64,000 nucleotides of DNA from an uncultured Candidatus Peribacteria bacterium (GCA_964387375.1 CAYLWB010000001.1:38514-102513), one strand, 5' to 3'; counted from the first letter of the stretch, positions 5,759 through 55,660 are shown. Numbers and translations: made by a program. The notes: generated from the letters alone by a model not told the origin.

Positions 5759-6013
5759 ATGGAAGCTTTGGACATCTTGCACCTTACTTTGGCCGTTTGT
5801 ATCGGTCTTTTAACGATTTTTCTTTCGTTCACCCTCATCTATTTGATGTTCATCTTGAGGGATGTCTCCAAAGTTACAGATAAAGTGAAAGAAATTGCCG
5901 AGAAGATAGATCGTACAATCACGAAACCCATTTTACTCACCAAGAGCATCATTGAGTTTGTCTCTCCATTCATTCAATCGGCAGAACGGGTTGTGAAGGG
6001 GAGAAAAAAGTAG
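5759..6013 (+). CDS. small membrane protein (single TM plus amphipathic helix, DUF948-like)
   Basis: 84 aa, N-terminal TM (LTLAVCIGLLTIFLSFTLIYLMFIL) and a charged helical tail. The 3' end overlaps the convergent GT26 gene by 44 nt. Confidence 0.4.
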   Translation: MEALDILHLTLAVCIGLLTIFLSFTLIYLMFILRDVSKVTDKVKEIAEKIDRTITKPILLTKSIIEFVSPFIQSAERVVKGRKK

Positions 6014-6764
6014 CTTTTAAGGGAAACACGACAAAAGCATTCCATATTCTTTTTGCTCGTGCCATTGGGTTGAGAATAAGACGCCAAACCCACTCTAGCC
6101 CCATTTTTTGAAGCATTTTAGGAGCCCTTTTGATGTTGCCGCTCCAGAAATCGAAAGATCCTCCCACGCCAATCGCCACGTGCAGATGAGGAAGTTGTGA
6201 ACAGTATTCAGCCATCCAGAGTTCTTGTTTTGGGGCACCATAAGCCACAAACAGCATTTGAGCCCTGCTCTCTTTTACTTGCTCAAATGCTTCCTTCCCA
6301 GGATTTAGGGAGGAAAAACCCGCTACAAGGAGTTTTGGGTATTTTTTTTGGAAAAAAGCAGCAGTTCTTTCGGCCACATTTCCAAAACCACCCAGAAAAA
6401 ATACAGATTGATTGTGGGCAGCAGCCCAGTCCACCATGTCACCCATGAAATCAGATCCGTGAATCACTTCTGGCAGAACTCGTTTAAACGGTGCTTTCCA
6501 AAAGAGGAATAGGAAAAGTGCTGGGAGGTACAGCACTGCACGTAAACTTTTAGATCGTATACTCAGAAGCGTAGAAACAAAGAAAAGGCCGTGACCATCT
6601 GGAAGCATGAGGTCTGCTTTTTCCAAAGCCTTAAAATAGGCTGGATTTCGATTCGCCTCCAAAAGAATTTCAGGATTTGGAGTCACAATAAGCCCCCCCT
6701 TAGCCAGAGCTGCCAGAGCTTGATTACGTGTGACAGGATCGATGCGTACGTTGAGAATTTTCAT
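5970..6764 (-). CDS. WecB/TagA/CpsF-family (GT26) glycosyltransferase
   Basis: VTPNPEILLEA, FLGG...VAERTA, AYGAPKQELWM, and VGGSFDFWSGNIKRAPKMLQKMGLEWVWRL, the typical TagA C-terminal signature. Confidence 0.85.
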   Translation of the reverse strand: MKILNVRIDPVTRNQALAALAKGGLIVTPNPEILLEANRNPAYFKALEKADLMLPDGHGLFFVSTLLSIRSKSLRAVLYLPALFLFLFWKAPFKRVLPEVIHGSDFMGDMVDWAAAHNQSVFFLGGFGNVAERTAAFFQKKYPKLLVAGFSSLNPGKEAFEQVKESRAQMLFVAYGAPKQELWMAEYCSQLPHLHVAIGVGGSFDFWSGNIKRAPKMLQKMGLEWVWRLILNPMARAKRIWNAFVVFPLKATFFSPSQPVLPIE

Positions 6765-7405
6765 GCCTCAGCAATATGAACAAAATTTTGGCCCTTTTCC
6801 TGATAGATTACCTTGAAACCTGCTTTATTCAAAGCACGGCTGAGACCTCTCAAGGTGCAAGCAAAATACGTACGATGAATTCGCTGCTTCCATGGAATTT
6901 GAAGGGCAGAAAAACCGTAACGAGGCCAAAACAAGGTTTTTAGCCAAAGGTTCACAAATCGCCACTGGAAAAGATTCCAGTTCGTCATAAAGAGGCGTCC
7001 TCCAGGTTTGAGCGTTTCCTTCCATGCTTTCAAGATATTAAAATGTTCTTTCGGCGGTAGGTGATGAAAGGAAGCGATTGCAAAAATGGCATCGAATTTT
7101 TCCTCAAAAGCGGGTAGACGAGAAATGTCTGCAAGCAAAAATTTTTCTTGTGGAAATTTTGCTTGAGCCAAAGCAAGCAGCTTTTTAGACTGATCAACGC
7201 CTAAGTATTTTTTATAACCATGTTTTTTTAAAAACGTGAGCAGACGGCCATTCCCACACCCCAAATCTAAAACAGCTGATTCTCTGTTGTAGAATGGTAA
7301 AAACACCTCAAATTCTTTCCAGGGAAATTGTCGCGTTTCATCAAACTCTTCGGCAATCGCATCGTAATCAGCTTTAATCTTTTCCTGGATTCTTTTAGAG
7401 TGCAT
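6761..7405 (-). CDS. class I SAM-dependent methyltransferase with Trm9/ALKBH8-like signature motifs
   Basis: YDAIAEEFDETRQFPWKEFEVFL (compare yeast Trm9 YNEIAPHFSQTRYKPWPIVTEFL). SAM motif I VLDLGCGNG. FDAIFAIASFHHLPPKEH...LKPGGRLFMTNWNLFQ (compare FDFAISIAVVHHWSTRERR...LRQGGQALIYCWALEQ). IPW...RTYFACTLRGL..AGFKV (compare VPW...RYYHLF..GEL..AGF). The methyltransferase fold is certain; the Trm9 assignment rests on motif reading only. Confidence 0.65.
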   Translation of the reverse strand: MHSKRIQEKIKADYDAIAEEFDETRQFPWKEFEVFLPFYNRESAVLDLGCGNGRLLTFLKKHGYKKYLGVDQSKKLLALAQAKFPQEKFLLADISRLPAFEEKFDAIFAIASFHHLPPKEHFNILKAWKETLKPGGRLFMTNWNLFQWRFVNLWLKTLFWPRYGFSALQIPWKQRIHRTYFACTLRGLSRALNKAGFKVIYQEKGQNFVHIAEA

Positions 7406-7410
7406 GCATC

Positions 7411-9003
7411 ATGAAAGTTTTCTCCGAGAAAGATATCCTCAAGCAGTTTATAAAACAAGCTGCGAACGCCAATCTTAAAAATGAAGATGAGCTTCATCGC
7501 TTTAAGAAAAACTTCTGCAAGGGTGCCGACCTGCCTATGTTCAGCAATGTGCGTCTCCAAACAGCTTATGAAGCCTTACTAAAAGAAGGCTGGCAAGGAG
7601 ATGATTTTTTGCAACGCCTCTTGCGTAAGCGAAAGATTCGTACCCTCTCTGGAGTTTCCGTTATTACAGTGCTCACAAAACCTTACACGTGCCCTGGACG
7701 CTGTGTATTTTGTCCAACAGAACCCGGAATGCCCAAGTCTTATCTTTCAAACGAACCTGGAGCCATGCGTGCCGTGCTCGACGATTTTCACCCGAAAGAT
7801 CAAGTTCAAACTCGTCTAAAAAGCTTGAAAGCTCAAGGTCATGAGACTGAAAAACTGGAAATGATTGTGTTGGGAGGAACTTTTTCTGCATACAACCGCC
7901 GGTACCAAAGGGACTTCATTCGCGCTCTCTACAATGCTTGTAACGAAAAGACCGAACGGAGTTTAGACAAAGCCCAAATCGCCAACGAAAGCAGTCCACA
8001 CAAGATCATCGGTTTGAGTTTAGAAACTCGACCCGATCACGTCACGGAAGAAGAAATTTGTCACATGAGAGAACTTGGCTGTACCAAGGTTCAAATTGGC
8101 GTTCAACACACGAATAATGAAGTCCTTGCACTTAACAAACGTGGAGAAACAATTGAAGACAGTATTCACGCAATCCAACTCCTCAAAGATGCAGGTCTCA
8201 AAATCGCCACCCACCTCATGCCCAACTTGCCTGGAAGTACCCCAGAGATGGACGTGCAGATGGTGAAGGATTTTTTTGAAAAACCCGAGTTTAAACCAGA
8301 CCAGCTTAAAATCTACCCTTGTGTGGTCACTCCTTATTCCGAACTGGAGCAATGGTGGAAGGAAGGCCGTTTTCATGCCTATTCCGACGAAGTTATGATG
8401 GACATTCTCCTCCAAATGCAGATGTCCTTGCCCGAGTACGTACGAGTGGAACGGCTTTTTCGAGACATCCCTGGGGAAAGCATTTTAGAGGGCAGTCAAA
8501 AGACGAATATGCGTCAACTTCTCGAAGAAAAAATGGAAAAAATGGGTATGAAATGCCGTTGCATACGTTGCCGTGAAATCAAGGGTGAGACTTACGATCC
8601 TTTGAACACCGAACTGCGAGTGCTTGAATATGAAGCTTCTCATGGTAAAGAATTTTTTATCAGCTTCAACGACAAGGAAAAAGATCGGCTTTGTTCTTTG
8701 CTCCGTCTCCGTTTCCCTTCACAGTTTTTCTCTGGAAAACCACATTTCATTTCCGAGTTGGAGGGGGCAGCTTTAGTGCGCGAGGTACACACTTACGGAG
8801 CTCAAATGAATACTGGGAGTCGAGGGAAAGAGGCTTCTCAACACGTAGGACTGGGTCGTCGTATGCTAGAGAAAGCAGAAGAAATCAGTAAAAACGCTGG
8901 GTTTAAAAAACTTGCTGTCATTGCTGGAGTGGGCACACGCAACTACTACCGAAAGTGGGGGTATGAATTGGAAGGAACTTACATGACTAAGAGCTTGTCT
9001 TAA
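7411..9003 (+). CDS. elp3: Elp3-type radical SAM/GNAT enzyme (tRNA uridine-34 carboxymethylation family)
   Basis: Radical SAM cluster region TKPYTCPGRCVFCPTEPGMPKSYLSNEPGAMRA, LEMIVLGGTFS, GLSLETRPD. C-terminal GNAT QHVGLGRRMLEKAEEISKNAGFKKLAVIAGVGTRNYYRKWGYELEGTYMTKSL matches the Elp3 KAT domain end. Confidence 0.9.
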   Translation: MKVFSEKDILKQFIKQAANANLKNEDELHRFKKNFCKGADLPMFSNVRLQTAYEALLKEGWQGDDFLQRLLRKRKIRTLSGVSVITVLTKPYTCPGRCVFCPTEPGMPKSYLSNEPGAMRAVLDDFHPKDQVQTRLKSLKAQGHETEKLEMIVLGGTFSAYNRRYQRDFIRALYNACNEKTERSLDKAQIANESSPHKIIGLSLETRPDHVTEEEICHMRELGCTKVQIGVQHTNNEVLALNKRGETIEDSIHAIQLLKDAGLKIATHLMPNLPGSTPEMDVQMVKDFFEKPEFKPDQLKIYPCVVTPYSELEQWWKEGRFHAYSDEVMMDILLQMQMSLPEYVRVERLFRDIPGESILEGSQKTNMRQLLEEKMEKMGMKCRCIRCREIKGETYDPLNTELRVLEYEASHGKEFFISFNDKEKDRLCSLLRLRFPSQFFSGKPHFISELEGAALVREVHTYGAQMNTGSRGKEASQHVGLGRRMLEKAEEISKNAGFKKLAVIAGVGTRNYYRKWGYELEGTYMTKSLS

Positions 9004-9021
9004 ACCTGTTTTTAAGGTATA

Positions 9022-12000
9022 ATGACAAGATTAACTTTTTCGATGAACGTCATCCCCAGTCATCCTATCGAAAGGAACGAGACTCAGGCAGAGGCACCTA
9101 AGGCCAGTTCAGAAGTGGGGAAGGCCGCTGTTGACCGACAATTAACGGGAATGGAGCTAAAAGCAACTTTGGATGCTTTTGATCCAGGCAAACCTCTTTC
9201 TGAACAGCCCACAACTGAACGTAGTCTGGAATTTTTACTCGACAAGCTCCTTGCAAAAGGGATTCAGGCTGGCGGAAAAATGGAAGAATTTAGAGCCAAT
9301 CCAGATCTCCTTAAAACCTATAAAAGTAAGGAAGATGAAGGAAATGAAGATTTGGCTGTTGAGCTTTTAAAGAAAGCTATTGCAGGCAATAAAGCTTGGT
9401 GGGAAGCCTTCACCAAGGCAGCAGAAGGGCGGCACAAAACCTACGTGGAAACTGTGCAAGCCATCGACAAAAATGAAGAACCTGGATGGATGGAAACCTA
9501 CGGCCCTTATGGGAAATATCTATTGCTGGGAGTGGGTGCTTATAGCGCTTACCAGCTTCTTTTCGGTAAAAAAAGCGATACGTGGGGGCAAGCTTTAACA
9601 CGTACCGTTAAAAATAGTGCTCTCACTGTGATTGGGTTGGGGGGATTTTTGAATGCCGAAAAAATTGACGACTGGGCTTTGAATTGGGGTCTCGACATGA
9701 ATTGGAAAACCCTTGCAGCTTTCTTCAGTGGAGGCGGCTTTGCCGTTTTCGATCTTGCTAAAAAATTTCCAGGCTTTTCCGAAACTGTAGAACTTTTGAA
9801 CGTGAACCCTCACACACTTTACAACCTGAAAGATAAAAAAATAGGTGATTTAAAATCTCAAGCCAATGCTCTGCACAAAGCCGGAGAGAGCATTCTTGGC
9901 TCAGGTCTAGCTTCGATTTCCTCCGTTTTAGGAGTGGATTTAGCCAAACAGGTTGGCGTTGATCTACGAGATAAAAAAACAATCGCTGAGGAGGAACTCA
10001 TTTTAGATTTCATCAATCTCAACCAAGGGCGTGTGAGTGGAGACCTAGATCAGCTAACGGTAGGCGCTTTTCTTGCTCAACTCGAAACACAAGGACTCTT
10101 CAAGCCAGGTGTAGCAAAGAAACTCAGTGAAACCAATGACTCTCCTGATGATCCAGGCTTGAACCTGCCAGACATGCCAGCTTCTTCTGAAGAAGAAAAA
10201 GCATGGTTCCCCAATACGGTTGAGGCAATCTGGTCAGAAGAATTCTCCCCAGAAGCTGTATTTGCAGGCGTCATTGCTGATGGGGCAAGCTTGGTGGGTT
10301 TAGAAGGAGGTCTTTATCTGATTAAAGAAGATCGAGCCACTCTACTCAGTACTCCAGCCGTTGTTACGGAATCTTTCAGAGATCTTGCAGAAATGTATTC
10401 TGGCGAAAAATCACTGTCTCAAGGAAGCTTCCAAATTTTAGAGCGACAAACAGAATGGGTTTTCAATGGGGGAGGAAAAGCTGTCGTTGAGGGCACTGCG
10501 ATCTACAGGACCATCCAAGGACTTAAAACCACATGGAATCCAGTTAAATTGGCTGGAATAGCCACACGAGGCGCTTGGGAAGGGGGCAAACACAGCATGC
10601 GACTACTTTTCACATTGAGTGGAGAAGTACCCGGAAGAATAGCCCTAGCAGGAGCACGCCAACTCTCAGTCGATAATTTACGAGCTCTATCGTATTCAGC
10701 AGCAGAAGTCATGAGAATGACAGCAGAGGGGAAGCAGGCTGTTCAACATGCACGAGCCGTTTGGCATGCAAATGAATTCAGGCGTCTCAGCGACCTTCTC
10801 AACGTCATGGCCGATGGTTCTGTTAGCATAAAAGGAGCAAAAGGGGCTTTGTATCGCATGTTTAGGGATCCGGAAAAACTAAAACAGGCCATGAGCTACC
10901 ATGCTAAAGAGTTTTTCAAAACAAGCGAGGCTTTCCAGAAATCAAAACTGGGATTTACGAAACAGATTTCTGAAGCGGCCCAATTTGGACCAGAAGAAAT
11001 CGTCAAACAAATGGTCAATGTTAAAGAGAAAATGTCTCGATTCTTCCAACTGCATCCAGATTATCGAATGCCATTACAGCCATTTACTAAGATTCTTGAA
11101 GTGGGAAAGGTTGTAGGAGGAAAACTTTATGAGGGTGCGGAACTAGCTTTGAATAAAATTGGATTAGGAGAATACATAGGCAAGATCAAGGCTATGGACC
11201 TTCCAGAAGGGCGTTTGAAGGAACTCGTTGCCGCTTTAACAAAATCTCCAGAGAAAATAGCCGCTTTTAAAACAGCTATTGGGACCAAATATGAACTGCT
11301 CAAGGCTTCTCTCAAACTGAACGGAGCAAAAGCGCTACCCGCAGCAATGGTGCTCCACACCTTCTATTCTTATCGCGGGGCAGGGGAGGCAGAAAAAGCA
11401 GATGAAGCCGTTCATTTAGCCTGGAATCTTGGTTTTTTGGGGGCAGACTTAAAGCTCGCTGCAGGCACATCAGCACGTTACGGAAAAAATCCTTTGGTCT
11501 TTCTCGGCCTTTTTGGAGCCCAAGTTTTAGGGAATGGCTACTATGATTCGAATTGGAAGCCCCATCTAGATAAATACTACCCCAATCGAAATGAATGGCT
11601 AACGAAAGGCTGGACCGGAGACGTAGCTTCTTTAGTTTCTTTTGAAGCTCTTTTAAATGCGGCGCGTTATGCAGACAGCTTAGATGACACTTTTGGTTGG
11701 GACACCTCCGATGAAACAATATATGCCACAACTGATCCCTTAGAATACTTGGATAGAGGTGGAAAAGCCCTGACTCCTGGGACAATCAGTCAGGCCTGGT
11801 GGAGTTGGCATTCTCCTGCAACAGAGAATTGGAAATCACCGATCCAAGACATTAAATTTTATGATCTCGCGAAGCTGCAGAAGATGGCTAAGCAAGCTGC
11901 CGACCAAAAACGTGCAGAATTGGACAGTCTATCTCCAGACGATGTCATTCGACGCCAAGTCCTAGAAGAAGAAATCAAAGTGATCGATGGGATGGCTGAT

Positions 12001-12390
12001 CTTGGAGAGCCCGAGAAAGGGATTCCACCTCAATGGATGCTCCAAAAAGACTTAGAATTAGCCCAAGAACAGGAAGAAGTGATTCAGCCAATACATGATG
12101 CATTTGAGGCTTATGTGTCTGCAATGATCCCAAAAGACGGCCCTGCGGCATTTGACAAAATTATAGAACGTATTCAAAAAACAGGAGAATTTCATATAGA
12201 AGGCCCTCAAGAACAAGCTCTCTGGGAAGTCATCTTTGAAAAAGGATTCAATATGAACGGGGAGGAAATGCGGTTCCCAAGTTTTATAGGAATTTTAGTA
12301 GGATTCTCAAAGAGAAAATTGCAGCTGCAAAAATTGCTAGAACCTTTTGATAGGAAGAGGCAAGAGGTCATGAGTAAGCTCGTTGCATAA
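9022..12390 (+). CDS. large hypothetical protein (1122 aa), no recognisable domain
   Basis: Uninterrupted ORF 18 nt downstream of elp3 on the same strand. Lys/Glu/Ala-rich, with several hydrophobic Gly-rich segments (YGKYLLLGVGAYSAYQLLF, ALTVIGLGGFL, LAAFFSGGGFAVF, NPLVFLGLFGAQVLG) and an acidic, coiled-coil-like C-terminus. No signal peptide. Confidence 0.6.
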   Translation: MTRLTFSMNVIPSHPIERNETQAEAPKASSEVGKAAVDRQLTGMELKATLDAFDPGKPLSEQPTTERSLEFLLDKLLAKGIQAGGKMEEFRANPDLLKTYKSKEDEGNEDLAVELLKKAIAGNKAWWEAFTKAAEGRHKTYVETVQAIDKNEEPGWMETYGPYGKYLLLGVGAYSAYQLLFGKKSDTWGQALTRTVKNSALTVIGLGGFLNAEKIDDWALNWGLDMNWKTLAAFFSGGGFAVFDLAKKFPGFSETVELLNVNPHTLYNLKDKKIGDLKSQANALHKAGESILGSGLASISSVLGVDLAKQVGVDLRDKKTIAEEELILDFINLNQGRVSGDLDQLTVGAFLAQLETQGLFKPGVAKKLSETNDSPDDPGLNLPDMPASSEEEKAWFPNTVEAIWSEEFSPEAVFAGVIADGASLVGLEGGLYLIKEDRATLLSTPAVVTESFRDLAEMYSGEKSLSQGSFQILERQTEWVFNGGGKAVVEGTAIYRTIQGLKTTWNPVKLAGIATRGAWEGGKHSMRLLFTLSGEVPGRIALAGARQLSVDNLRALSYSAAEVMRMTAEGKQAVQHARAVWHANEFRRLSDLLNVMADGSVSIKGAKGALYRMFRDPEKLKQAMSYHAKEFFKTSEAFQKSKLGFTKQISEAAQFGPEEIVKQMVNVKEKMSRFFQLHPDYRMPLQPFTKILEVGKVVGGKLYEGAELALNKIGLGEYIGKIKAMDLPEGRLKELVAALTKSPEKIAAFKTAIGTKYELLKASLKLNGAKALPAAMVLHTFYSYRGAGEAEKADEAVHLAWNLGFLGADLKLAAGTSARYGKNPLVFLGLFGAQVLGNGYYDSNWKPHLDKYYPNRNEWLTKGWTGDVASLVSFEALLNAARYADSLDDTFGWDTSDETIYATTDPLEYLDRGGKALTPGTISQAWWSWHSPATENWKSPIQDIKFYDLAKLQKMAKQAADQKRAELDSLSPDDVIRRQVLEEEIKVIDGMADLGEPEKGIPPQWMLQKDLELAQEQEEVIQPIHDAFEAYVSAMIPKDGPAAFDKIIERIQKTGEFHIEGPQEQALWEVIFEKGFNMNGEEMRFPSFIGILVGFSKRKLQLQKLLEPFDRKRQEVMSKLVA

Positions 12391-40305: not shown

Positions 40306-41454
40306 ATGGGGCAGATGTCAGTTCTACGCCGCTTTCTTTCTGCAACCGTTCTATTGGATTTATTCCTTGTGAATTTTGCGCTGGGAGCTGTTTTCTTTGT
40401 ACTGAAAGATAAACTCCCAAGCTTCTTCCCATTGATCCTGCTGTTTCTTTCTTTTGTAAGTGTCTGTTTTCTAGTTTATTTCAAAATTCACCTTCCTCTC
40501 AACAAGGTCATTCAAGAAATGAAAGCCCTTCTTACAGGAAGAACCTACCGTCGCATAATGACCTCCAAAAGAGATGAGATTGGCGTTTTAGCTCACTTTT
40601 TCAATGAAATCACCCGCAATCTTGAAAGCATCTCTGGAGACGTACGTTCCAATGAACGCATTAAAAAAGAATTGAATGCAGCTCAAAACATTCAAAAGGA
40701 TTTGCTTCCTTCCGAAGCTCCTCGCATAGCGGGACTCGAAATTTGTGCCAAAACACGCCCTGCCTCAGAAATCGGTGGAGACAGTTTTGATTTTTATTTC
40801 AATAAAAACCGTACATTCCTCTACGTGGGAGACTCTACAGGCCACGGCATCCCTGCGGGCATCGTTATGGTGATGGTCGACACGTTGATTGAAACCTTCA
40901 TCGACCTTTATTCCTCAGTGACAGAAATACTTGTCCAATTGAATAAGTACTTAAAACCTCACCTCCAAACCACCATGTTCATGACCTTGGTGCTTTTGGA
41001 GTGGATCCCAGAACGTCAAACGTTCAAATGGGCTGGTGCTGGACACGAATACCTTGTCCATGCCAAAACCAGCACTGGAGAGGTCAATGCATATCCTTGC
41101 GGTGGAGTCGCGCTTGGAATGATTGCCGACAACAGCAAGCACGTAAAAGAGAACGAGATCACCATGAACCCACTCGATTTTCTTGTTTTATACTCTGATG
41201 GGATAACAGAAGCAAAAAATGTAATGGGAGAAACTTACGGGCTGGAACGTCTACAGAACGCTATTAAGACCCATATGAGCACTGATATGGCAGCAAAAGA
41301 TCTCTTCGACCATATTGCTTTGGACGTGAGTCATTTTATGGCTGGAAGCGTGCAAGACGATGACATGACCCTCATCGTCATTAAGCACGTGGTGTCCAAT
41401 CCTGAAGAAAAGATGGAAGCACACTTGGAGCCTGTAGATCCGGCAGCTTTTTAA
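40306..41454 (+). CDS. membrane-bound HAMP-domain PP2C (SpoIIE/RsbU-type) phosphoserine phosphatase
   Basis: Two N-terminal TM helices, a HAMP-like linker (LPLNKVIQEMKALLTGRTYRRI...EIGVLAHFFNEITRNLE), then EIGGDSFDF, YVGDSTGHGIPAGIVMVM, YSDGITEA, DDMTLIVIK. Confidence 0.85.
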   Translation: MGQMSVLRRFLSATVLLDLFLVNFALGAVFFVLKDKLPSFFPLILLFLSFVSVCFLVYFKIHLPLNKVIQEMKALLTGRTYRRIMTSKRDEIGVLAHFFNEITRNLESISGDVRSNERIKKELNAAQNIQKDLLPSEAPRIAGLEICAKTRPASEIGGDSFDFYFNKNRTFLYVGDSTGHGIPAGIVMVMVDTLIETFIDLYSSVTEILVQLNKYLKPHLQTTMFMTLVLLEWIPERQTFKWAGAGHEYLVHAKTSTGEVNAYPCGGVALGMIADNSKHVKENEITMNPLDFLVLYSDGITEAKNVMGETYGLERLQNAIKTHMSTDMAAKDLFDHIALDVSHFMAGSVQDDDMTLIVIKHVVSNPEEKMEAHLEPVDPAAF

Positions 41455-42865
41455 TCTCATGGATCTCCTCGACGGAGAACTTCCCAAGATAAAGTTCGCG
41501 GGGATCGCCTCCTTGAGCAATGAAGTTTTTTACCTGCAAATATCCACGGAAAGGGAGAGCTCCTTCCGCAAAAGCTCCTGATTGATCTAGATTCAACAGT
41601 CCTTTTTTGCTTTCAAAAGCAAAATCAAAAGCTTCTTCGGGGCTCAATCCAAGTTTTAAACAGTAATCAAAACTCTCACAAAAGCCATGAGTACGAGCAA
41701 AATCAATAACGAACAAATGAAGAGCCGCTTTGACCAATACACCTTTGCCAAACAATTGACTTTGATTCCACAAATCTAAACCTTTTACAGTGGTTTGAGC
41801 TCCCGCCCAGCCCACCTTAAACAATTCATAAACCTGCCCTTCGGCATTCTGCTCCAAAAATTTATCCACCTCTCCCGTTTTGGACAGAGTTTTTATTTCA
41901 TGCTTTTCACTCAGAATTTGTCGAGCCGCTTCGAGTTCATCCTGAGTGGGAAAGGGGTAAAGGGCTTGCCCCAACTCTTCAAAATCTACCGTCCCAATGT
42001 TTCTTAAAACAGCGTGTTTTTTTTGAAGTTCTTCCCTTTTGCGCCCAAGCAAAGCGCTTAAAACTGACGTACTTTCTGTAGAAAACTCTTCAATGGGATC
42101 AAGCTTTGTCTTGGGATAGACGAAACGAGGAGATCGAGTGGAATTCTGCAAAAATGCTTCTTTCTCTGTCTCGAGGTTGAGAGGCGTGATCAAAGGAGTG
42201 AATTGAAGAGAGCGATGCACTCGAGTTAAAAATCGATCCAAGAGCAATTCTTGTCGTGTAGAGCAATCCTTTGTAGAGACTAAAGCTTGGTGTTTTTTTC
42301 TTTTAATCCCAAACAGTTCCTGAGCCATTCGTACAGAGCTTTCAATATTTTTTGCACGCACTCCTTCCATTTTCTGAAGGATATCTTTTGGAAGTTTTGA
42401 TGGAAGGATTGGAGACAACCCAATCAGAATTGGACCTCGCTCGTCATCCTCCACCAAATAGATCTTGAAGGCTGAAAAGGGTAAATGATGGGCAATTTTA
42501 GCCGCAAAATAAAGATTCTTTGTTTTAGACGTGGTGCTACGAACTGGAACGCCATGAAGCATTGTGATGCGATGGGGCTTAGAAGCAAAAGCTTCCTCCA
42601 CCAAAACTACATCTGGAATTCGTGCAGGATTAAAACACCCTTCCAAACAATCTTCCGCCTGAGCTTCTAGATTTTGTGATGAAGCAAAACGATGAAATTC
42701 CCAATCTGGCCCAACCAAAAAAGCACCTGAGATTTTCGAGAAATTAAAATTCTGCACATCTCGATGTTGACGAAAAAGCGCATGAAGCTTTGGAAGTAAA
42801 AACCCCTTCTTTTCAAAAAACTTTCTTAAACGTAAACGGCTTTTTATAAAGAACGCGGCTTTCAT
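41381..42865 (-). CDS. hypothetical protein whose C-terminal ~280 aa resemble DUF1704/MATCAP-type carboxypeptidases but lack the HExxH site
   Basis: TPLNLETEKEAFLQNSTRSPRFVYP, LYPFPTQDELEAARQIL and the tail AFAEGALPFRGYLQVKNFIAQGGDPRELYLGKFSVEEIHEIKKL...VLPSFL follow the DUF1704 block order. No HExxH and no QEGLA motif are present. The N-terminal ~210 aa are unassigned. Confidence 0.4.
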   Translation of the reverse strand: MKAAFFIKSRLRLRKFFEKKGFLLPKLHALFRQHRDVQNFNFSKISGAFLVGPDWEFHRFASSQNLEAQAEDCLEGCFNPARIPDVVLVEEAFASKPHRITMLHGVPVRSTTSKTKNLYFAAKIAHHLPFSAFKIYLVEDDERGPILIGLSPILPSKLPKDILQKMEGVRAKNIESSVRMAQELFGIKRKKHQALVSTKDCSTRQELLLDRFLTRVHRSLQFTPLITPLNLETEKEAFLQNSTRSPRFVYPKTKLDPIEEFSTESTSVLSALLGRKREELQKKHAVLRNIGTVDFEELGQALYPFPTQDELEAARQILSEKHEIKTLSKTGEVDKFLEQNAEGQVYELFKVGWAGAQTTVKGLDLWNQSQLFGKGVLVKAALHLFVIDFARTHGFCESFDYCLKLGLSPEEAFDFAFESKKGLLNLDQSGAFAEGALPFRGYLQVKNFIAQGGDPRELYLGKFSVEEIHEIKKLPDLQAPSVLPSFLQDWTPRA

Positions 42866-43989
42866 TTCTTACGAGGAATTAAATATTCCGAAAGATACAA
42901 TCCTTTCCAAAGGTTCAAAAGATAGAGCAGTACGGGAACGGTTAAAAGAAGTTCTGGCCTCGACAAGAGTAGAAGTTTTAAGAGATCCCATTCCAAAAGC
43001 AGATTTGCAAGCAGAGAAACGATAAGGAGTTCCAAGAAAAACCAGAGTCGCAAACCGTGTTTTTTAGGGATATAAACCGTTTCAAAGCTTTCCAAAAATT
43101 CACTAAAAACAAGTGCGGCCAAAAAGAGAAAGCCTAGTCCATCTCGAACACCGAAAGAAGGTGCTAAACTGAGTAAGAAAAGGAGCACAATGCTCAGCAT
43201 AAAGAGACGAAGAGCAGAGCGGGAAAGTCCTGCAAAGGAAGTGCGTTTGAGAAAGAATCGCATTAGCGCTTCGAACAAAAGAACCGCAAAGAAAAAAAGA
43301 AGCCCATAAGGCAAACCAGCAACAAGAAAAACGACGGTCCAAAGAGTAGGCAGGAAGAGGCCAAGCGGGGAAATGCCAAAAATTTTTCTGAGCAATACAA
43401 AAAAAGTTGCTAAAAAAGGAAGTGCAAGAACCAACGCAAGAAAGGAAATAGGAATGGGCAAACTTAATAATTGATTCTGCCAAGAATCTGAGGGGAAGAC
43501 CCACTCTCCACCAGAAAGATCCCCATCCAAGACCCCAAAGAGGTCTTTTGGATGAAGTAGGAAGAGAGGCGATTTAGCCAATCCATTAAAGAGTTCAAAG
43601 GGTTCTTCCGTAATCAAAAGAATGTCTTGATTAGGAGAACTCCCCTGCTCTAATGCAGTAAAGCTGGCCACTCCATTATTCCACAAAAGCACTGTCTTAG
43701 CGTTTTGAAAAAGATCGCGATTCTTCAAAATTAGATCTTCAACAGCCTCCGCTTCTGCAAAGTCGGAAGGAGCATCAAAATCCATTAAAAGATCCGCCTT
43801 CAGCCCTTTTTCTTCAGCCCAATTCATAAAGGCCCTTAAATCTACTTCTGCAGTAGAATCGCTTGAAAGAACTAAAAAAGGACCTTCAAAAGCAAAAACT
43901 TGAGGAGCTAGAATCAAAACAAAGAAAAGGGCGGCGCAGAGTTTTTTAAACATGCTCAGATTATAAAGGCTTTTCTTTCCTTCCGCCAC
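42862..43989 (-). CDS. signal-peptide protein with an extracytoplasmic domain and a C-terminal 7TM module (7TM_transglut-like)
   Basis: Signal peptide LCAALFFVLILAPQVFA, a soluble domain of about 170 aa, then 7 hydrophobic helices. The conserved-looking blocks IFGISPLGLFLPTL, FSEFLESFE and the terminal WKGLYLSEYLIPRK resemble the 7TM domain usually fused to inactive transglutaminases. ATGA-type 4-nt overlap with the downstream gene. Confidence 0.45.
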   Translation of the reverse strand: MAEGKKSLYNLSMFKKLCAALFFVLILAPQVFAFEGPFLVLSSDSTAEVDLRAFMNWAEEKGLKADLLMDFDAPSDFAEAEAVEDLILKNRDLFQNAKTVLLWNNGVASFTALEQGSSPNQDILLITEEPFELFNGLAKSPLFLLHPKDLFGVLDGDLSGGEWVFPSDSWQNQLLSLPIPISFLALVLALPFLATFFVLLRKIFGISPLGLFLPTLWTVVFLVAGLPYGLLFFFAVLLFEALMRFFLKRTSFAGLSRSALRLFMLSIVLLFLLSLAPSFGVRDGLGFLFLAALVFSEFLESFETVYIPKKHGLRLWFFLELLIVSLLANLLLEWDLLKLLLLSRPELLLTVPVLLYLLNLWKGLYLSEYLIPRKK

Positions 43990-51927: not shown

Positions 51928-53025
51928 TCAGTGAACCAGTTCATCAACCACAGCTCGGATCTCGCTGTAATCTCCTGATTTCGGCAGTAATATGTAGGCT
52001 CCACCCTCATTGATCATAGAATAAAGATAGTTCTGAGTGCTAAAAACCAAGCCCGTACGCAAATCGTAGCTGGCATAGTTTTGGTAGTAATGAATGATGT
52101 CCAGTAAAGAAAGGTCTGTATTTACATGGTTCATTGCAGTAGCAAAGAGTGTGCCAAGATCGGAAGTCTCCAATCCATTCTGCATTTCCTCCACCTTGGT
52201 ACGTAGAGCATACAACACTTTTTGCTGGCGACTGGCTCTGTCAAAGTCTGAAGTGGACTTGCGGCTGCGAGAATAACGGAGTGCTTCTGTACCATCCATA
52301 TGATGGTGTCCAACCTCAATCGAATAGGGCTCGTAACCATTCGGGCCAGGGAATTGCCCATCATAAATTGCCTCATCCACGTAGACATCTACTCCCCCAA
52401 CTAAATCCACCATATCGATAAAACCCTGCAGGTCTACCTCAATGTATTTTTCCATGGTCAATCCCGTGACCATTTCGACCATGCGTTTAAGCTGATCTGG
52501 GCCATACAGAGAGTAATAAACGTTGATACGGCGACCATTCACATAAAGATCTCGAGGAATCGAGAAAAGTGAAATTTTAGACTCAAGCTCATTGATGCTT
52601 GCGACCATAATGGTATCTGTATGCATGCCATTCGTTCCCAAAACCAAAATATCCAAGGTGCTATCTTCCTCAGCAAGTTGCAGGTGATCTTCCTGAGGAT
52701 AGAAACCCGCTTCCAAACTTTCAAAAGAAAGCTGACCAAAAAGAGATTCATAAACACCTTCCCCACCCTGTACATAACTAAGAGTTTCCTCAAAGGACCC
52801 CAAACCTTCTTCTATAGAGCTGAGCACCACCTCTTGATTCTCCAGTTCCATCTTAAGATTCAGGTTTTCTTGACTGAGAGTCCCAATTTCATCCACCAAG
52901 GCATTGATCTGTTCTTGGTTTTTTTCTGCTGCCAACTGAATAGACCCATTCAGCCAAAACAAGCCGGAAAATAAAACAGCAATGAAGAGGAAGAGCAGAA
53001 AGTTAAATACTTTGGACGGGTTCAT
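51928..53025 (-). CDS. LytR-CpsA-Psr (LCP) family cell-wall glycopolymer transferase
   Basis: N-terminal TM helix, a coiled-coil insert, then ILVLGTNGMHTDTIMVASIN...SLFSIPRDLYV and RYSRSRKSTSDFDRASRQQKVL. Confidence 0.85.
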   Translation of the reverse strand: MNPSKVFNFLLFLFIAVLFSGLFWLNGSIQLAAEKNQEQINALVDEIGTLSQENLNLKMELENQEVVLSSIEEGLGSFEETLSYVQGGEGVYESLFGQLSFESLEAGFYPQEDHLQLAEEDSTLDILVLGTNGMHTDTIMVASINELESKISLFSIPRDLYVNGRRINVYYSLYGPDQLKRMVEMVTGLTMEKYIEVDLQGFIDMVDLVGGVDVYVDEAIYDGQFPGPNGYEPYSIEVGHHHMDGTEALRYSRSRKSTSDFDRASRQQKVLYALRTKVEEMQNGLETSDLGTLFATAMNHVNTDLSLLDIIHYYQNYASYDLRTGLVFSTQNYLYSMINEGGAYILLPKSGDYSEIRAVVDELVH

Positions 53026-55660
53026 CAGGTTTAGGTGCCTCGGCAGGAGCCTCGACCTGAGTAGTATAATCCATTGGAACGTTTTTGTTTAAGTCTTCTA
53101 CAGAAATTCCAATGCGTGCTGCAATTTCTTGCTCCACGAAAAGACGTTTTCTTCCGTATTTCATGCTAGAATATTTCTTAACAATATCTCGAATTTTAAG
53201 ATTAGCTCCATCGGGGTCCCATACGGTGTCCATAGAAAATGGCCGTGAGGTCGCATTCTTTATATTGAGTTTAAGGTAAGCTTTGTAGTTGGGGATACCA
53301 ATGATGTCCTGCTCTGTAAGTACAGGTGCATATTCTTTAGCCAAGTATTCTGCATCTTCGGCACCCACTTTAAAAGATTGCAAAGTCCCCACGTTACCAA
53401 ATACTGCATCACGGATTTGAGTACTCGTGGAGCCAAATTTAGTAACTACAAGCTGATTGATGTATTGATGAGCCATGATCAATGCCAGGCGGTACTTACG
53501 AGCTTCCGAAAGAATTGAAGAGAACGTATCTGTTGCAAAGTTTTGAAACTCATCCACGTAAAGAAAGAAATCTTTGCGTTCTTCCTCGGGAGTATCCACG
53601 CGACTCATGGCTGCCATTTGAATTTGCGCCACAAGAATAAGTCCCAAGAGTTGGGTATTTAAAGTTCCCAATTTACCTTTTGAAAGATTCACCAACAAAA
53701 TTTTCTGCTGATCCATAACTTCACGCACGTTGAAAGCAGATTTGGCTTGGCCAATTGTATTTCTCATCACAGAATTCGTAATGAATGGTCCAAATTTTGC
53801 AGAGAAATAAGGGATCATTTCTTGACGTTCACGCTCACCAGTATTGGCATATTCATGCTCCCAAAAGGATTTAACCACAGGGTTTTTTACTTTAGAAACT
53901 TTGTATTTCATGAATTCTTCATCCACAAAGATACGTGGCACATCAATGAGTGTCGCCCCCTCGTCGGGGTCTTCCATCAGAGTCAAACATGCATTGCGGA
54001 AATAGTGTTGAATGCGAGGGCCAAAAATTTCATCTCCAAAGATTTTGATGAAAATTTCTGTTGCTTGGCTGGAGGCCATGTCCTGCTGTTCTGGAGTTTT
54101 CGCCTCAAGCATGTTCAAACCCATTGGACGTTCTACATCTGCAGGGTCAAAGATGATCACATCCTTCACACGCTCCTTGGGGATATACTTGAGAATATCT
54201 TCAATCAAGTCCCCATGTGGATCCACCACACAAACTCCATCACCATTCGCAATGTCCTGGCGCGCCATATAACTGATATAGGCAGATTTACCAGTACCTG
54301 TTTGTCCAATCACATAGTGGTGACGGCGACGATCATTTCGGCCAAACCGCACCTCTTTTTTATCTCCACGGTACACATTGTATCCAAGTAGAATTCCATC
54401 AGAAACAACGTCCTTAGGCACAGGGAGCACCTTATAATCCAACCATTTAATGATTGGCGTGTAGTTGTATCGAGTGTTTGGAAAATGAAAGAGCGTTGCC
54501 AGCTCTTGCGGAGTCAGAATTGAATTTTTCTCACCATAACGGAATAGACGGTTTTTGAAATTGGCAAAAAGCAAAGGGGTATTGATGCCATCGATCAAAA
54601 TAAAACGTCTGGATTGAAACCAGTTCGAAGCAGCATCCTTTGTTGAATTGAAACTCACAAATAGGCCATTCAAAATTTCATCACAACGGTTTTCTCCCCG
54701 TGGAGAAGCTGCCAAAACTCGAATGGTTGTATCAAAACCCACCTGGTGAGATTTTTCACCAATACGCTTTGCCAGTTCTTCTTCTGTTTGAAGCATGCGG
54801 ACATACGAATCACCGTTCTGAGCTCCAGGAGGTAAATTCTTTTCAGCAGCATCCACTCCCCAAATAGTCGCTGTAAAAATCCAACTAAACATTCCCAAGA
54901 TTTTACCAGCAAACCCTCTGCCGCCATTTTTTTTACCTTTAAAAAGTTGTGTCGCAAAATCAGTCGCCTCTTTCTGCCAACGATTGCCTTTGGGTCGGAT
55001 CATGATCTGAATGGCAGCATGCTCATCTTCATCTAAAGTAGAAAGTACATTTGTAAAATCATTCAGAGGGTCATTTTCAATAGTTTTGTAGGTCAGCAAA
55101 GGATACCAATTCAAGCGCTTTAAAAAGAGATAGTAAATCTTCAGAAAAGCTTTAGGTTTGCCCTTCTCTCCCTGAAAGTCATAGGGCTTCTCAAAAGAAA
55201 TATCAGCAGTCGAATAATAGGAAGTGATTTGTTTCTCCAAAAGATCCGCATAGTACGGATGGACGCTCACATAGAAAGTCAGTTCCTTGTTTTTTGCGTG
55301 AATTTCAAAAGAAATCACATCGCGTTTAAAGAACCATAAGGTCAACTGATTGCTGAGATTGAGTTCTCGCATCTCATGGATACCTCGAAAGAGCTGCTCC
55401 ATAACAGCAATTTTTTCGCGGAAGTCTTTTTCGGTCGCATTCTCTTTATCCTTATGAGATTCCTCTCGAGGCATGATCACTCGCATAAAAACACGTTTCC
55501 GTGCAGCGTGCACTTCATAGATCAAACCCACAGTGAACCAGAATAAACGGCGAAGCAGAACAAAGGCCACTATGCCAATCAACACGTACAGCCAATAATT
55601 CTGAATCCAAGGCCAAACCTGGGACCAAAGAGCTTTCAATTGTTCAAATACAGAAGCCAT
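53003..55660 (-). CDS. VirD4/TraG/TraD-like coupling-protein-type ATPase (membrane-anchored P-loop NTPase)
   Basis: N-terminal TM helices (YWLYVLIGIVAFVLL...FWFTVGLIY), Walker A VIGQTGTGKSAY, Walker B FFLYVDEFQNF, then LALIMAHQYINQL. 885 aa. Confidence 0.7.
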   Translation of the reverse strand: MASVFEQLKALWSQVWPWIQNYWLYVLIGIVAFVLLRRLFWFTVGLIYEVHAARKRVFMRVIMPREESHKDKENATEKDFREKIAVMEQLFRGIHEMRELNLSNQLTLWFFKRDVISFEIHAKNKELTFYVSVHPYYADLLEKQITSYYSTADISFEKPYDFQGEKGKPKAFLKIYYLFLKRLNWYPLLTYKTIENDPLNDFTNVLSTLDEDEHAAIQIMIRPKGNRWQKEATDFATQLFKGKKNGGRGFAGKILGMFSWIFTATIWGVDAAEKNLPPGAQNGDSYVRMLQTEEELAKRIGEKSHQVGFDTTIRVLAASPRGENRCDEILNGLFVSFNSTKDAASNWFQSRRFILIDGINTPLLFANFKNRLFRYGEKNSILTPQELATLFHFPNTRYNYTPIIKWLDYKVLPVPKDVVSDGILLGYNVYRGDKKEVRFGRNDRRRHHYVIGQTGTGKSAYISYMARQDIANGDGVCVVDPHGDLIEDILKYIPKERVKDVIIFDPADVERPMGLNMLEAKTPEQQDMASSQATEIFIKIFGDEIFGPRIQHYFRNACLTLMEDPDEGATLIDVPRIFVDEEFMKYKVSKVKNPVVKSFWEHEYANTGERERQEMIPYFSAKFGPFITNSVMRNTIGQAKSAFNVREVMDQQKILLVNLSKGKLGTLNTQLLGLILVAQIQMAAMSRVDTPEEERKDFFLYVDEFQNFATDTFSSILSEARKYRLALIMAHQYINQLVVTKFGSTSTQIRDAVFGNVGTLQSFKVGAEDAEYLAKEYAPVLTEQDIIGIPNYKAYLKLNIKNATSRPFSMDTVWDPDGANLKIRDIVKKYSSMKYGRKRLFVEQEIAARIGISVEDLNKNVPMDYTTQVEAPAEAPKPDEPVQSI

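Follow-up and report, generated by a model that had tools for sequence, protein, structure and literature searches.

We report that a 64,000-nucleotide (nt) stretch of DNA from an uncultured Candidatus Peribacteria bacterium (CAYLWB010000001.1:38514-102513; this whole stretch is referred to as the window) carries a pair of divergently oriented genes, one of which encodes an intact, full-length Elp3, while the other encodes a class I S-adenosylmethionine (SAM)-dependent methyltransferase. As judged from its sequence, the latter is specifically Trm9-like and not a generic member of the Methyltransf_11/25 families. With a probability of roughly three in four, we consider the two genes to specify a two-step pathway that would convert the wobble uridine of tRNA (U34) to 5-carboxymethyluridine (cm5U34) and then to 5-methoxycarbonylmethyluridine (mcm5U34). 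According to the textbook view, bacteria modify U34 via MnmE/MnmG. The pathway proposed here is the known Elongator/Trm9 route, and what is new is the bacterial host domain. The conservation of the pair in genomes of the candidate phyla radiation (CPR, Patescibacteria) and in Dehalococcoides points to a eukaryote/archaeon-type U34 chemistry in bacteria.

Domain content and active-site residues of the two proteins

The plus-strand gene had been called an Elp3 in an earlier, sequence-only reading of the window, and this call was borne out far beyond chance. The protein scored 544.5 bits against the NCBIfam model TIGR01211 (E 2e-163; curated cut-off 350), with an alignment that covers the full length (Elp3 residues 15-529 to model positions 4-522). 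Its top PDB match was the archaeal MinElp3 (417 bits, E 6.5e-124), and other matches included DmcElp3 (382 bits) as well as yeast and mammalian Elp3 (330-340 bits). Pfam identified Radical_SAM and Radical_SAM_C, with Acetyltransf_1 remaining below its threshold (18.9 bits vs 20.7). The cysteines of the radical SAM cluster motif CPGRCVFC (C94-x3-C98-x2-C101) are spaced as in DmcElp3 (CPGKCIYC). Furthermore, the acetyl-CoA-binding motif QHVGLG (Q477-G482) aligns with QHMGYG of MinElp3 and QHRGLG of DmcElp3, and the C-terminal tail GVGTRNYYRKWGY (GxRxYY type) aligns to the structures of both proteins. Across 60 CPR Elp3 sequences, CPG.C..CP, PKSYL, GGT, ETR.D, QH.G.G, and G.R.YY are all conserved to at least 95%. 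We predict this Elp3 to be a cm5U34 synthase.

The sequence-only reading had further proposed that the methyltransferase resembles Trm9/ALKBH8 rather than a generic enzyme, based on peptide blocks (YDAIAEEFDETRQFPW, FDAIFAIASFHH, NWNLFQ, IPW, RTYF, and AGFKV) that, like the C-terminal tail of Elp3, were all recovered from the translation, and profile comparisons agreed with this proposal. When a family profile comprising 37 members of the methyltransferase family was searched against the PDB, YlTrm9 from Yarrowia (5cm2_Z) came first with 75.4 bits over profile positions 23-210, ahead of a runner-up with 67.4 bits, even though this chain lacks its first 38 residues. Among the three PDB alignments listed, only that of YlTrm9 extends to the C-terminal motifs, and in a PDB search with the single sequence, YlTrm9 ranked second. 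Full-length fungal Trm9 sequences (n = 120) scored a median of 92.8 bits with the family profile, and hhalign aligned this profile end to end with an alignment of 16 fungal Trm9 sequences (probability 99.9%, E 3.8e-33, 200 aligned columns). In the reverse direction, a fungal Trm9 hidden Markov model (HMM) was run against more than 3,100 open reading frames (ORFs) taken from the window and from 80 related loci, where it matched only the methyltransferase and its orthologues, with 52-104 bits and with 70.5 bits for the window protein. The best non-Trm9 match of this HMM in the PDB was partial and reached 41.7 bits, about 30 bits under the family; unrelated viral methyltransferases scored 25-50 bits with an HMM of the CPR family and gave no match with the Trm9 HMM.

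Conservation was graded within the 37-member family, and the correspondence to Trm9 was derived from hmmsearch and hhalign. Residues 45-53 (VLDLGCGNG) form SAM-binding motif I and are aligned with DVGCGNGK in Trm9; D47 and G49-R54 are invariant in all 37 members. Likewise invariant are Y14, R25, D71 (the acidic residue at the end of strand beta2), H115, W143, R178, Y180, and N207, which correspond to Y18, R29, D72, H116, W145, R241, Y243, and N271 of yeast Trm9 (ScTrm9), respectively; H114 (ScTrm9 H115) and W172 (ScTrm9 W168) are nearly invariant, and Q147, which aligns with ScTrm9 Q149, lies outside the conserved columns of the family. In yeast Trm9, replacement of R29, D72, H116, W145, W168, R241, Y243, or N271 by alanine has been described to abolish function or to reduce it strongly (PMC4678810), and every one of these mutagenesis-essential residues is invariant or nearly invariant in the family. 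A smaller MAFFT alignment of CPR, Dehalococcoidia, and fungal sequences showed full identity at the positions D (FD), HH, W, R-x-Y, and N. This residue-level coincidence of conserved columns with the Trm9 active site is the most telling evidence. The predicted function is that of a tRNA (carboxymethyluridine34-5-O)-methyltransferase. Moreover, the N-terminus MHSKRI is conserved across the family, and the assigned start codon is therefore correct.

Conservation of the pair in CPR and Dehalococcoidia genomes

A scan with the family profile, covering one genome per species, yielded at least 547 relatives of the methyltransferase, the best 80 loci of which were analysed. Essentially all of them belong to Patescibacteria lineages (Peribacteria, Peregrinibacteria, Gracilibacteria, Komeili-, Parcu-, Falkow-, Uhr-, Nomura-, Staskawicz-, and Kerfeldbacteria), some being derived from metagenome-assembled genomes (MAGs) that are labelled Saccharibacteria or Gammaproteobacteria in their records. 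The nearest relatives were found in Candidatus Peribacteria, Peregrinibacteria, and Gracilibacteria MAGs, and the window accordingly represents a piece of the chromosome of a CPR bacterium. In 65 of the 80 loci, the gene directly upstream is that of Elp3 and runs in the opposite direction; since the upstream sequence falls short of 1 kb in 5 of the 15 loci without the pair, this corresponds to 65 of 75 informative loci. Together with the Dehalococcoidia loci described below (49/62), this answers a check that had been proposed with the sequence-only reading, namely whether the divergent pairing is conserved in related genomes. The assumption that Elp3 is rare in bacteria did not hold to the same extent: it is less rare than had been thought, with the methyltransferase alone having at least 547 relatives in species-representative genomes.

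Based on mechanical ORF calls, the spacing between the start codons has a median of -2 nt in the 65 paired loci and is exactly -2 nt in 10 of them, and the gap does not exceed 300 nt in 59. Where the two start codons overlap in this way by 2 nt, the expression signals of either gene would all lie within its partner. The loci with a spacing of -2 nt are L014, L016, L017, L022, L023, L030, L031, L036, L058, and L060, and in most of these the methyltransferase starts at about position 6001. The flanks of the pair vary, with WecG and GatB in Peribacteria-type loci and SHMT, FolD, and phosphoglucomutase in Parcubacteria-type loci. Elp3 and the methyltransferase are the sole constant unit across these loci, and the conservation of the pair is deep.

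It should also be mentioned that 11 MAGs titled 'uncultured Gammaproteobacteria' encode the methyltransferase (L016, L023, L024, L030, L031, L037, L041, L056, L057, L065, and L074), and all except L024 have the Elp3-Trm9 pair. Several of them share the 2-nt start overlap of loci labelled Parcubacteria or Nomurabacteria, and their taxonomic labels may be wrong.

For the analysis of Dehalococcoidia, the DmcElp3 query sequence was rebuilt from the PDB alignment and used to scan metagenome contigs; 62 Dehalococcoidia-type loci were considered informative, their upstream sequence being 900 nt or longer. A Trm9-like methyltransferase is encoded upstream on the opposite strand in 49 of these 62 loci and directly adjoins Elp3 in 36, while 13 loci with sufficient flank have no partner nearby. 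One contig (L082) encodes an Elp3 that is 100% identical to the crystallised DmcElp3 of Dehalococcoides mccartyi, with the methyltransferase located about 25-40 nt upstream. The database cluster nearest to this methyltransferase is 91% identical and named D. mccartyi methyltransferase, and further relatives occur in Dehalogenimonas and other Chloroflexota. The Dehalococcoidia methyltransferases represent a separate subfamily, whose score with the CPR HMM (about 97 bits) is similar to that of fungal Trm9; among the matches listed, scores range from about 88 to 112 bits with the CPR HMM and from about 70 to 86 bits with the Trm9 HMM. The CPR, Dehalococcoidia, and fungal Trm9 groups are roughly equidistant by HMM score, which argues against a recent transfer between CPR and Dehalococcoidia. 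Leaving aside 3 ORFs that were shortened by start-codon trimming, the positions D, HH, W, PW/SW, R-x-Y, and N are retained in the Dehalococcoidia methyltransferases, as is R wherever the N-terminus is intact.

Within the same set of contigs, an ORF of about 75 amino acids (aa) with a four-cysteine zinc ribbon (CPxC...CWKC) was observed downstream of the methyltransferase on the same strand in 19 Dehalococcoidia-type loci (L082:6420-6719 (-); also L083, L085, L088, L091, L097, L099, L114, L116, L140, and others), and it directly adjoins the methyltransferase in most of its loci. The ORF has no match to Pfam Trm112p, and an HMM built from it found no match in the window or the CPR loci; its product could be a lineage-specific counterpart of Trm112. 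In addition, QueH (epoxyqueuosine reductase; L082:5101-5685 (+)) is encoded on the D. mccartyi-type contig, at a distance of about 1.6 kb from the methyltransferase gene; this enzyme, too, modifies position 34 of tRNA.

Trm9-like methyltransferases are also encoded by about 24 viral contigs (L162-L185), approximately one-third of which are named giant-virus MAGs; both HMMs, that of the CPR family and that of fungal Trm9, give these proteins 113-139 bits. In 2 giant-virus MAG contigs from IMG/VR, Elp3 is located just upstream on the same strand (L177:4124-6600 and L181:3632-6606). Giant viruses therefore have the pair as well, in a tandem instead of a divergent arrangement.

Proposed pathway and alternative explanations

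In the pathway that we propose, Elp3 would carry out the first step alone, without other Elongator subunits. Its radical SAM domain would generate a 5'-deoxyadenosyl radical, which would activate the acetyl group of the acetyl-CoA held in the GNAT domain; the acetyl group would join C5 of U34, and release of CoA would leave cm5U34. Radical SAM and acetyl-CoA chemistry of this type has been demonstrated for archaeal Elp3. In the second step, the divergently encoded Trm9-type methyltransferase, with SAM as the methyl donor, would methyl-esterify the carboxylate of cm5U34, resulting in mcm5U34. Within its active site, R25, H114/H115, R178, and Y180 are predicted to position the carboxylate, and N207 together with W143 would hold the uracil ring. 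The head-to-head arrangement would keep both genes together as one inherited unit. We infer the enzymatic activities, the tRNA substrates, and the final nucleoside from the features of the two proteins.

Several observations weigh against this pathway and are considered here along with the alternatives. Trm9 of eukaryotes and of Haloferax volcanii requires Trm112, and a Trm112-like partner may be needed here as well. A regex search for Trm112-like/zinc-knuckle motifs in small ORFs of the 64-kb window returned nothing credible, and clustering of neighbours in the 80 CPR loci revealed neither a conserved small neighbour protein nor a Trm112-like one. Moreover, cm5U does not accumulate in H. volcanii upon loss of Trm9, being quickly turned into other species, so that a diversion to other products is possible (PMC6144793). 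These points would fit an alternative in which Elp3 makes cm5U34 and the methyltransferase gives no stable mcm5U, either because it depends on an unlinked partner or because the product is a 2-thiolated, amidated, or otherwise altered derivative of cm5U. The zinc-ribbon gene that often directly follows the Dehalococcoidia methyltransferase hints in the same direction, towards lineage-specific partners. However, the carboxylate- and uracil-binding residues of Trm9 are all conserved in the methyltransferase, which argues for Trm9 chemistry on the same substrate, and we regard this alternative as unlikely.

Other points concern the identity of the methyltransferase itself. Neither Pfam nor NCBIfam provided a Trm9-specific model for it, the matches being restricted to generic families (Methyltransf_25/11 in Pfam), and its identity to fungal Trm9 amounts to only about 26-28%. 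An AlphaFold (AF2) model, with a predicted local distance difference test (pLDDT) score of 93, retrieved 5cm2_Z as the third Foldseek match in the PDB (E 8.7e-13, template modelling (TM) scores 0.68/0.78), with all top class I methyltransferases lying within about twofold E of it; the fold by itself therefore does not discriminate. Uncharacterised and natural-product methyltransferases are among these top matches. In addition, 10 CPR loci with ample upstream sequence have no adjacent Elp3, and in the window a glycosyltransferase gene seems to be translationally coupled to that of the methyltransferase. Given the generic family matches, the Foldseek result, and this coupling, the 214-aa protein might be a generic small-molecule, protein, or rRNA methyltransferase that adjoins Elp3 owing to genome compactness. 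This explanation is already disfavoured and appears very improbable to us, as the pair is retained in 65 of the 75 informative CPR loci and 49 of the 62 Dehalococcoidia loci, with all other neighbours varying, as the Trm9 HMM separates the family (52-139 bits) from generic methyltransferases (at most 42 bits or no match), and as only 36 of 80 loci have the glycosyltransferase gene behind that of the methyltransferase. Still less credence, and in our view hardly any, is due to the idea that bacterial Elp3 is chiefly a protein (lysine) acetyltransferase, or acts on another RNA, and that the pair does not serve U34. It draws on the past annotation of Elp3 as a histone acetyltransferase, a name still found on PDB entries; against it, Elp3 proteins from bacteria, archaea, and eukaryotes hydrolyse acetyl-CoA in response to tRNA, whereas peptides of histone or tubulin and nucleic acids other than tRNA do not trigger this reaction (PMC6367351), and the partner methyltransferase carries the cm5U-binding residues of Trm9.

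Genomic context, known systems, and significance

Both ORFs were found exactly at the coordinates claimed in the sequence-only reading, with divergent start codons separated by 5 nt (Table 1), and the DNA of the junction reads tgCAT-gcatc-ATGaaa (7403-7413). With such a short spacer, the promoter or ribosome-binding site of either gene must sit within the opposite gene. No sigma-70-like site was detected in or beside the spacer, and a promoter and terminator scan around the pair was uninformative. The head-to-head layout, with its shared start region, probably couples the expression of both genes.

Table 1. Positions of the gene pair, its sequence motifs, and the adjoining glycosyltransferase gene in the window
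Feature	Position	Strand	Remarks
Trm9-like class I SAM-dependent methyltransferase	6761..7405	-	214 aa, ATG start; ORF list
SAM-binding motif I VLDLGCGNG, residues 45-53	7247..7273	-	aligns to DVGCGNGK of Trm9
Spacer GCATC, 5 nt, between divergent start codons	7406..7410	.	sequence
Elp3 (radical SAM, Radical_SAM_C, C-terminal GNAT/KAT domain)	7411..9003	+	530 aa, ATG start; ORF list
Radical SAM cluster motif CPGRCVFC, C94-x3-C98-x2-C101	7690..7713	+	conserved in CPR Elp3
Acetyl-CoA-binding motif QHVGLG, Q477-G482, GNAT domain	8839..8856	+	aligned to Elp3 structures
WecG/TagA-family glycosyltransferase gene	5970..6764	-	Pfam Glyco_tran_WecG, E 1e-44

The start of the glycosyltransferase gene overlaps the methyltransferase stop by 4 nt, and the two genes are therefore probably co-transcribed; the overlap also suggests a translational coupling of a tRNA enzyme to a cell-envelope enzyme. 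In the related CPR loci, the glycosyltransferase follows the methyltransferase in 36 of 80 cases, and we treat it as context outside the predicted pathway. The genes flanking the pair are ordinary housekeeping genes (Fmt, signal peptidase, GatB, the WecG-type glycosyltransferase, RecG, TyrRS, and a pseudouridine synthase).

Further features of the window were observed outside the pair. An ORF of 1122 aa (9022-12390 (+)) without Pfam match begins 18 nt past the Elp3 stop, and a sigma-70-like promoter consensus (10/12 matches) extends over 8995-9023. An 885-aa protein with domains of type IV secretion coupling proteins (TraG/VirD4/TrwB-like; 53003-55660 (-)) is encoded in a segment that otherwise contains housekeeping genes. 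Finally, two adjoining genes at 41381-43989 (-) have one Pfam match each, MATCAP (microtubule-associated tyrosine carboxypeptidase) and 7TM_transglut, which is an unusual pairing.

Compared to the eukaryotic system, i.e., Elongator with Trm9-Trm112 or ALKBH8-TRMT112, the same two catalytic proteins are present in the window. Elp3 shares the layout of radical SAM and GNAT domains, and the methyltransferase aligns end to end with Trm9, including all essential active-site residues. In contrast to that system, the two window genes are physically paired and no genes for Elp1, Elp2, Elp4-6, or Trm112 are found near them. Furthermore, the methyltransferase, with its 214 aa, is minimal, lacking the insertions of yeast Trm9 as well as the RRM and AlkB domains of ALKBH8.

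The archaeal systems, such as the stand-alone Elp3 with Trm9-Trm112 of H. volcanii (HVO_2888 and HVO_1032), are similar in that Elp3 acts without other Elongator subunits, as proposed here, and the best PDB match of the window Elp3 is archaeal. In yeast as well as H. volcanii, mcm5U is formed from cm5U by Trm9-Trm112, and in the latter it was shown to depend on both Trm9 and Trm112 (PMC6144793). A clustering of the Elp3 and Trm9 genes in Sulfolobus solfataricus was noted in 2008 (PMC2584109), and archaeal Trm9 has been reported only from Sulfolobales and Halobacteriales (PMC5372719). The window differs from these systems in its bacterial host and its tight divergent gene pair, and its Elp3 has a cysteine spacing of CX3CX2C as opposed to CX4CX2C in MinElp3. 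With DmcElp3 (PDB 5L7J), the structural model of bacterial Elp3, it shares both the cysteine motif and the divergent Trm9-like neighbour (L082). DmcElp3 is devoid of the N-terminal extension that is needed for tRNA binding in MinElp3 (PMC6367351), whereas the window Elp3 has about 70 N-terminal residues beyond DmcElp3.

Bacterial MnmE/MnmG and CmoM, which are responsible for 5-carboxymethylaminomethyluridine (cmnm5U34) and the methyl ester of 5-carboxymethoxyuridine (cmo5U34), act on the same tRNA position for the same decoding purpose, with enzymes and chemistry that are unrelated to those proposed here. CmoM likewise methyl-esterifies the carboxylate of a U34 side chain. No specific match to MnmE, MnmG, or CmoM was obtained among the window genes scanned, which comprised a part of the window ORFs, nor did the methyltransferase have such a match in the best 25 of its 44 NCBIfam hits. 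UbiE-, BioC-, and CmoB-like enzymes were considered as candidates for the methyltransferase and rejected, since all NCBIfam matches of these kinds are far under their cut-offs.

With regard to the literature, a 2020 review placed bacterial Elp3 in one clade, Dehalococcoides, and stated that there was no evidence of xcm5U products there (PMC7663514), and a 2017 review described bacterial relatives of Trm112-dependent methyltransferases as undetectable (PMC5372719). According to a paper from 2026, Elp3 is present in "numerous bacteria", a statement that is not elaborated there. The sequence-only reading had regarded an Elp3-Trm9 pair in bacteria as uncharacterised, and this stands: no description of the pair was found in the accessible literature, which did not include the 2016 structure paper on DmcElp3. 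It is to be noted that the automated annotation of the Joint Genome Institute (JGI) already names many of these methyltransferases TRM9, which limits the novelty.

From the pair, mcm5U-type nucleosides are to be expected in bacteria, with D. mccartyi as a model organism among them, and this prediction is clear and cheap to test. As the best-studied bacterial Elp3, DmcElp3, also has a Trm9-like neighbour, the latter may represent the missing downstream enzyme of the D. mccartyi system. Moreover, the compact two-gene module of the window, with an Elp3 that has retained its N-terminal region, is suited to a reconstitution of the pathway in vitro or in Escherichia coli. Beyond that, the finding bears on the origin of this chemistry, i.e., its presence in the last universal common ancestor versus its movement between domains. 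A farther-reaching proposal, which we put forward tentatively and hold to be doubtful at present, is that Patescibacteria and Dehalococcoidia, as two deep lineages of bacteria, make mcm5U-type U34 with a stand-alone Elp3 and a minimal Trm9 that works without canonical Trm112, encoded and inherited as one divergent unit that replaces MnmE/MnmG. If this were true, the Elp3/Trm9 route would be ancient in all three domains and no speciality of eukaryotes and archaea.

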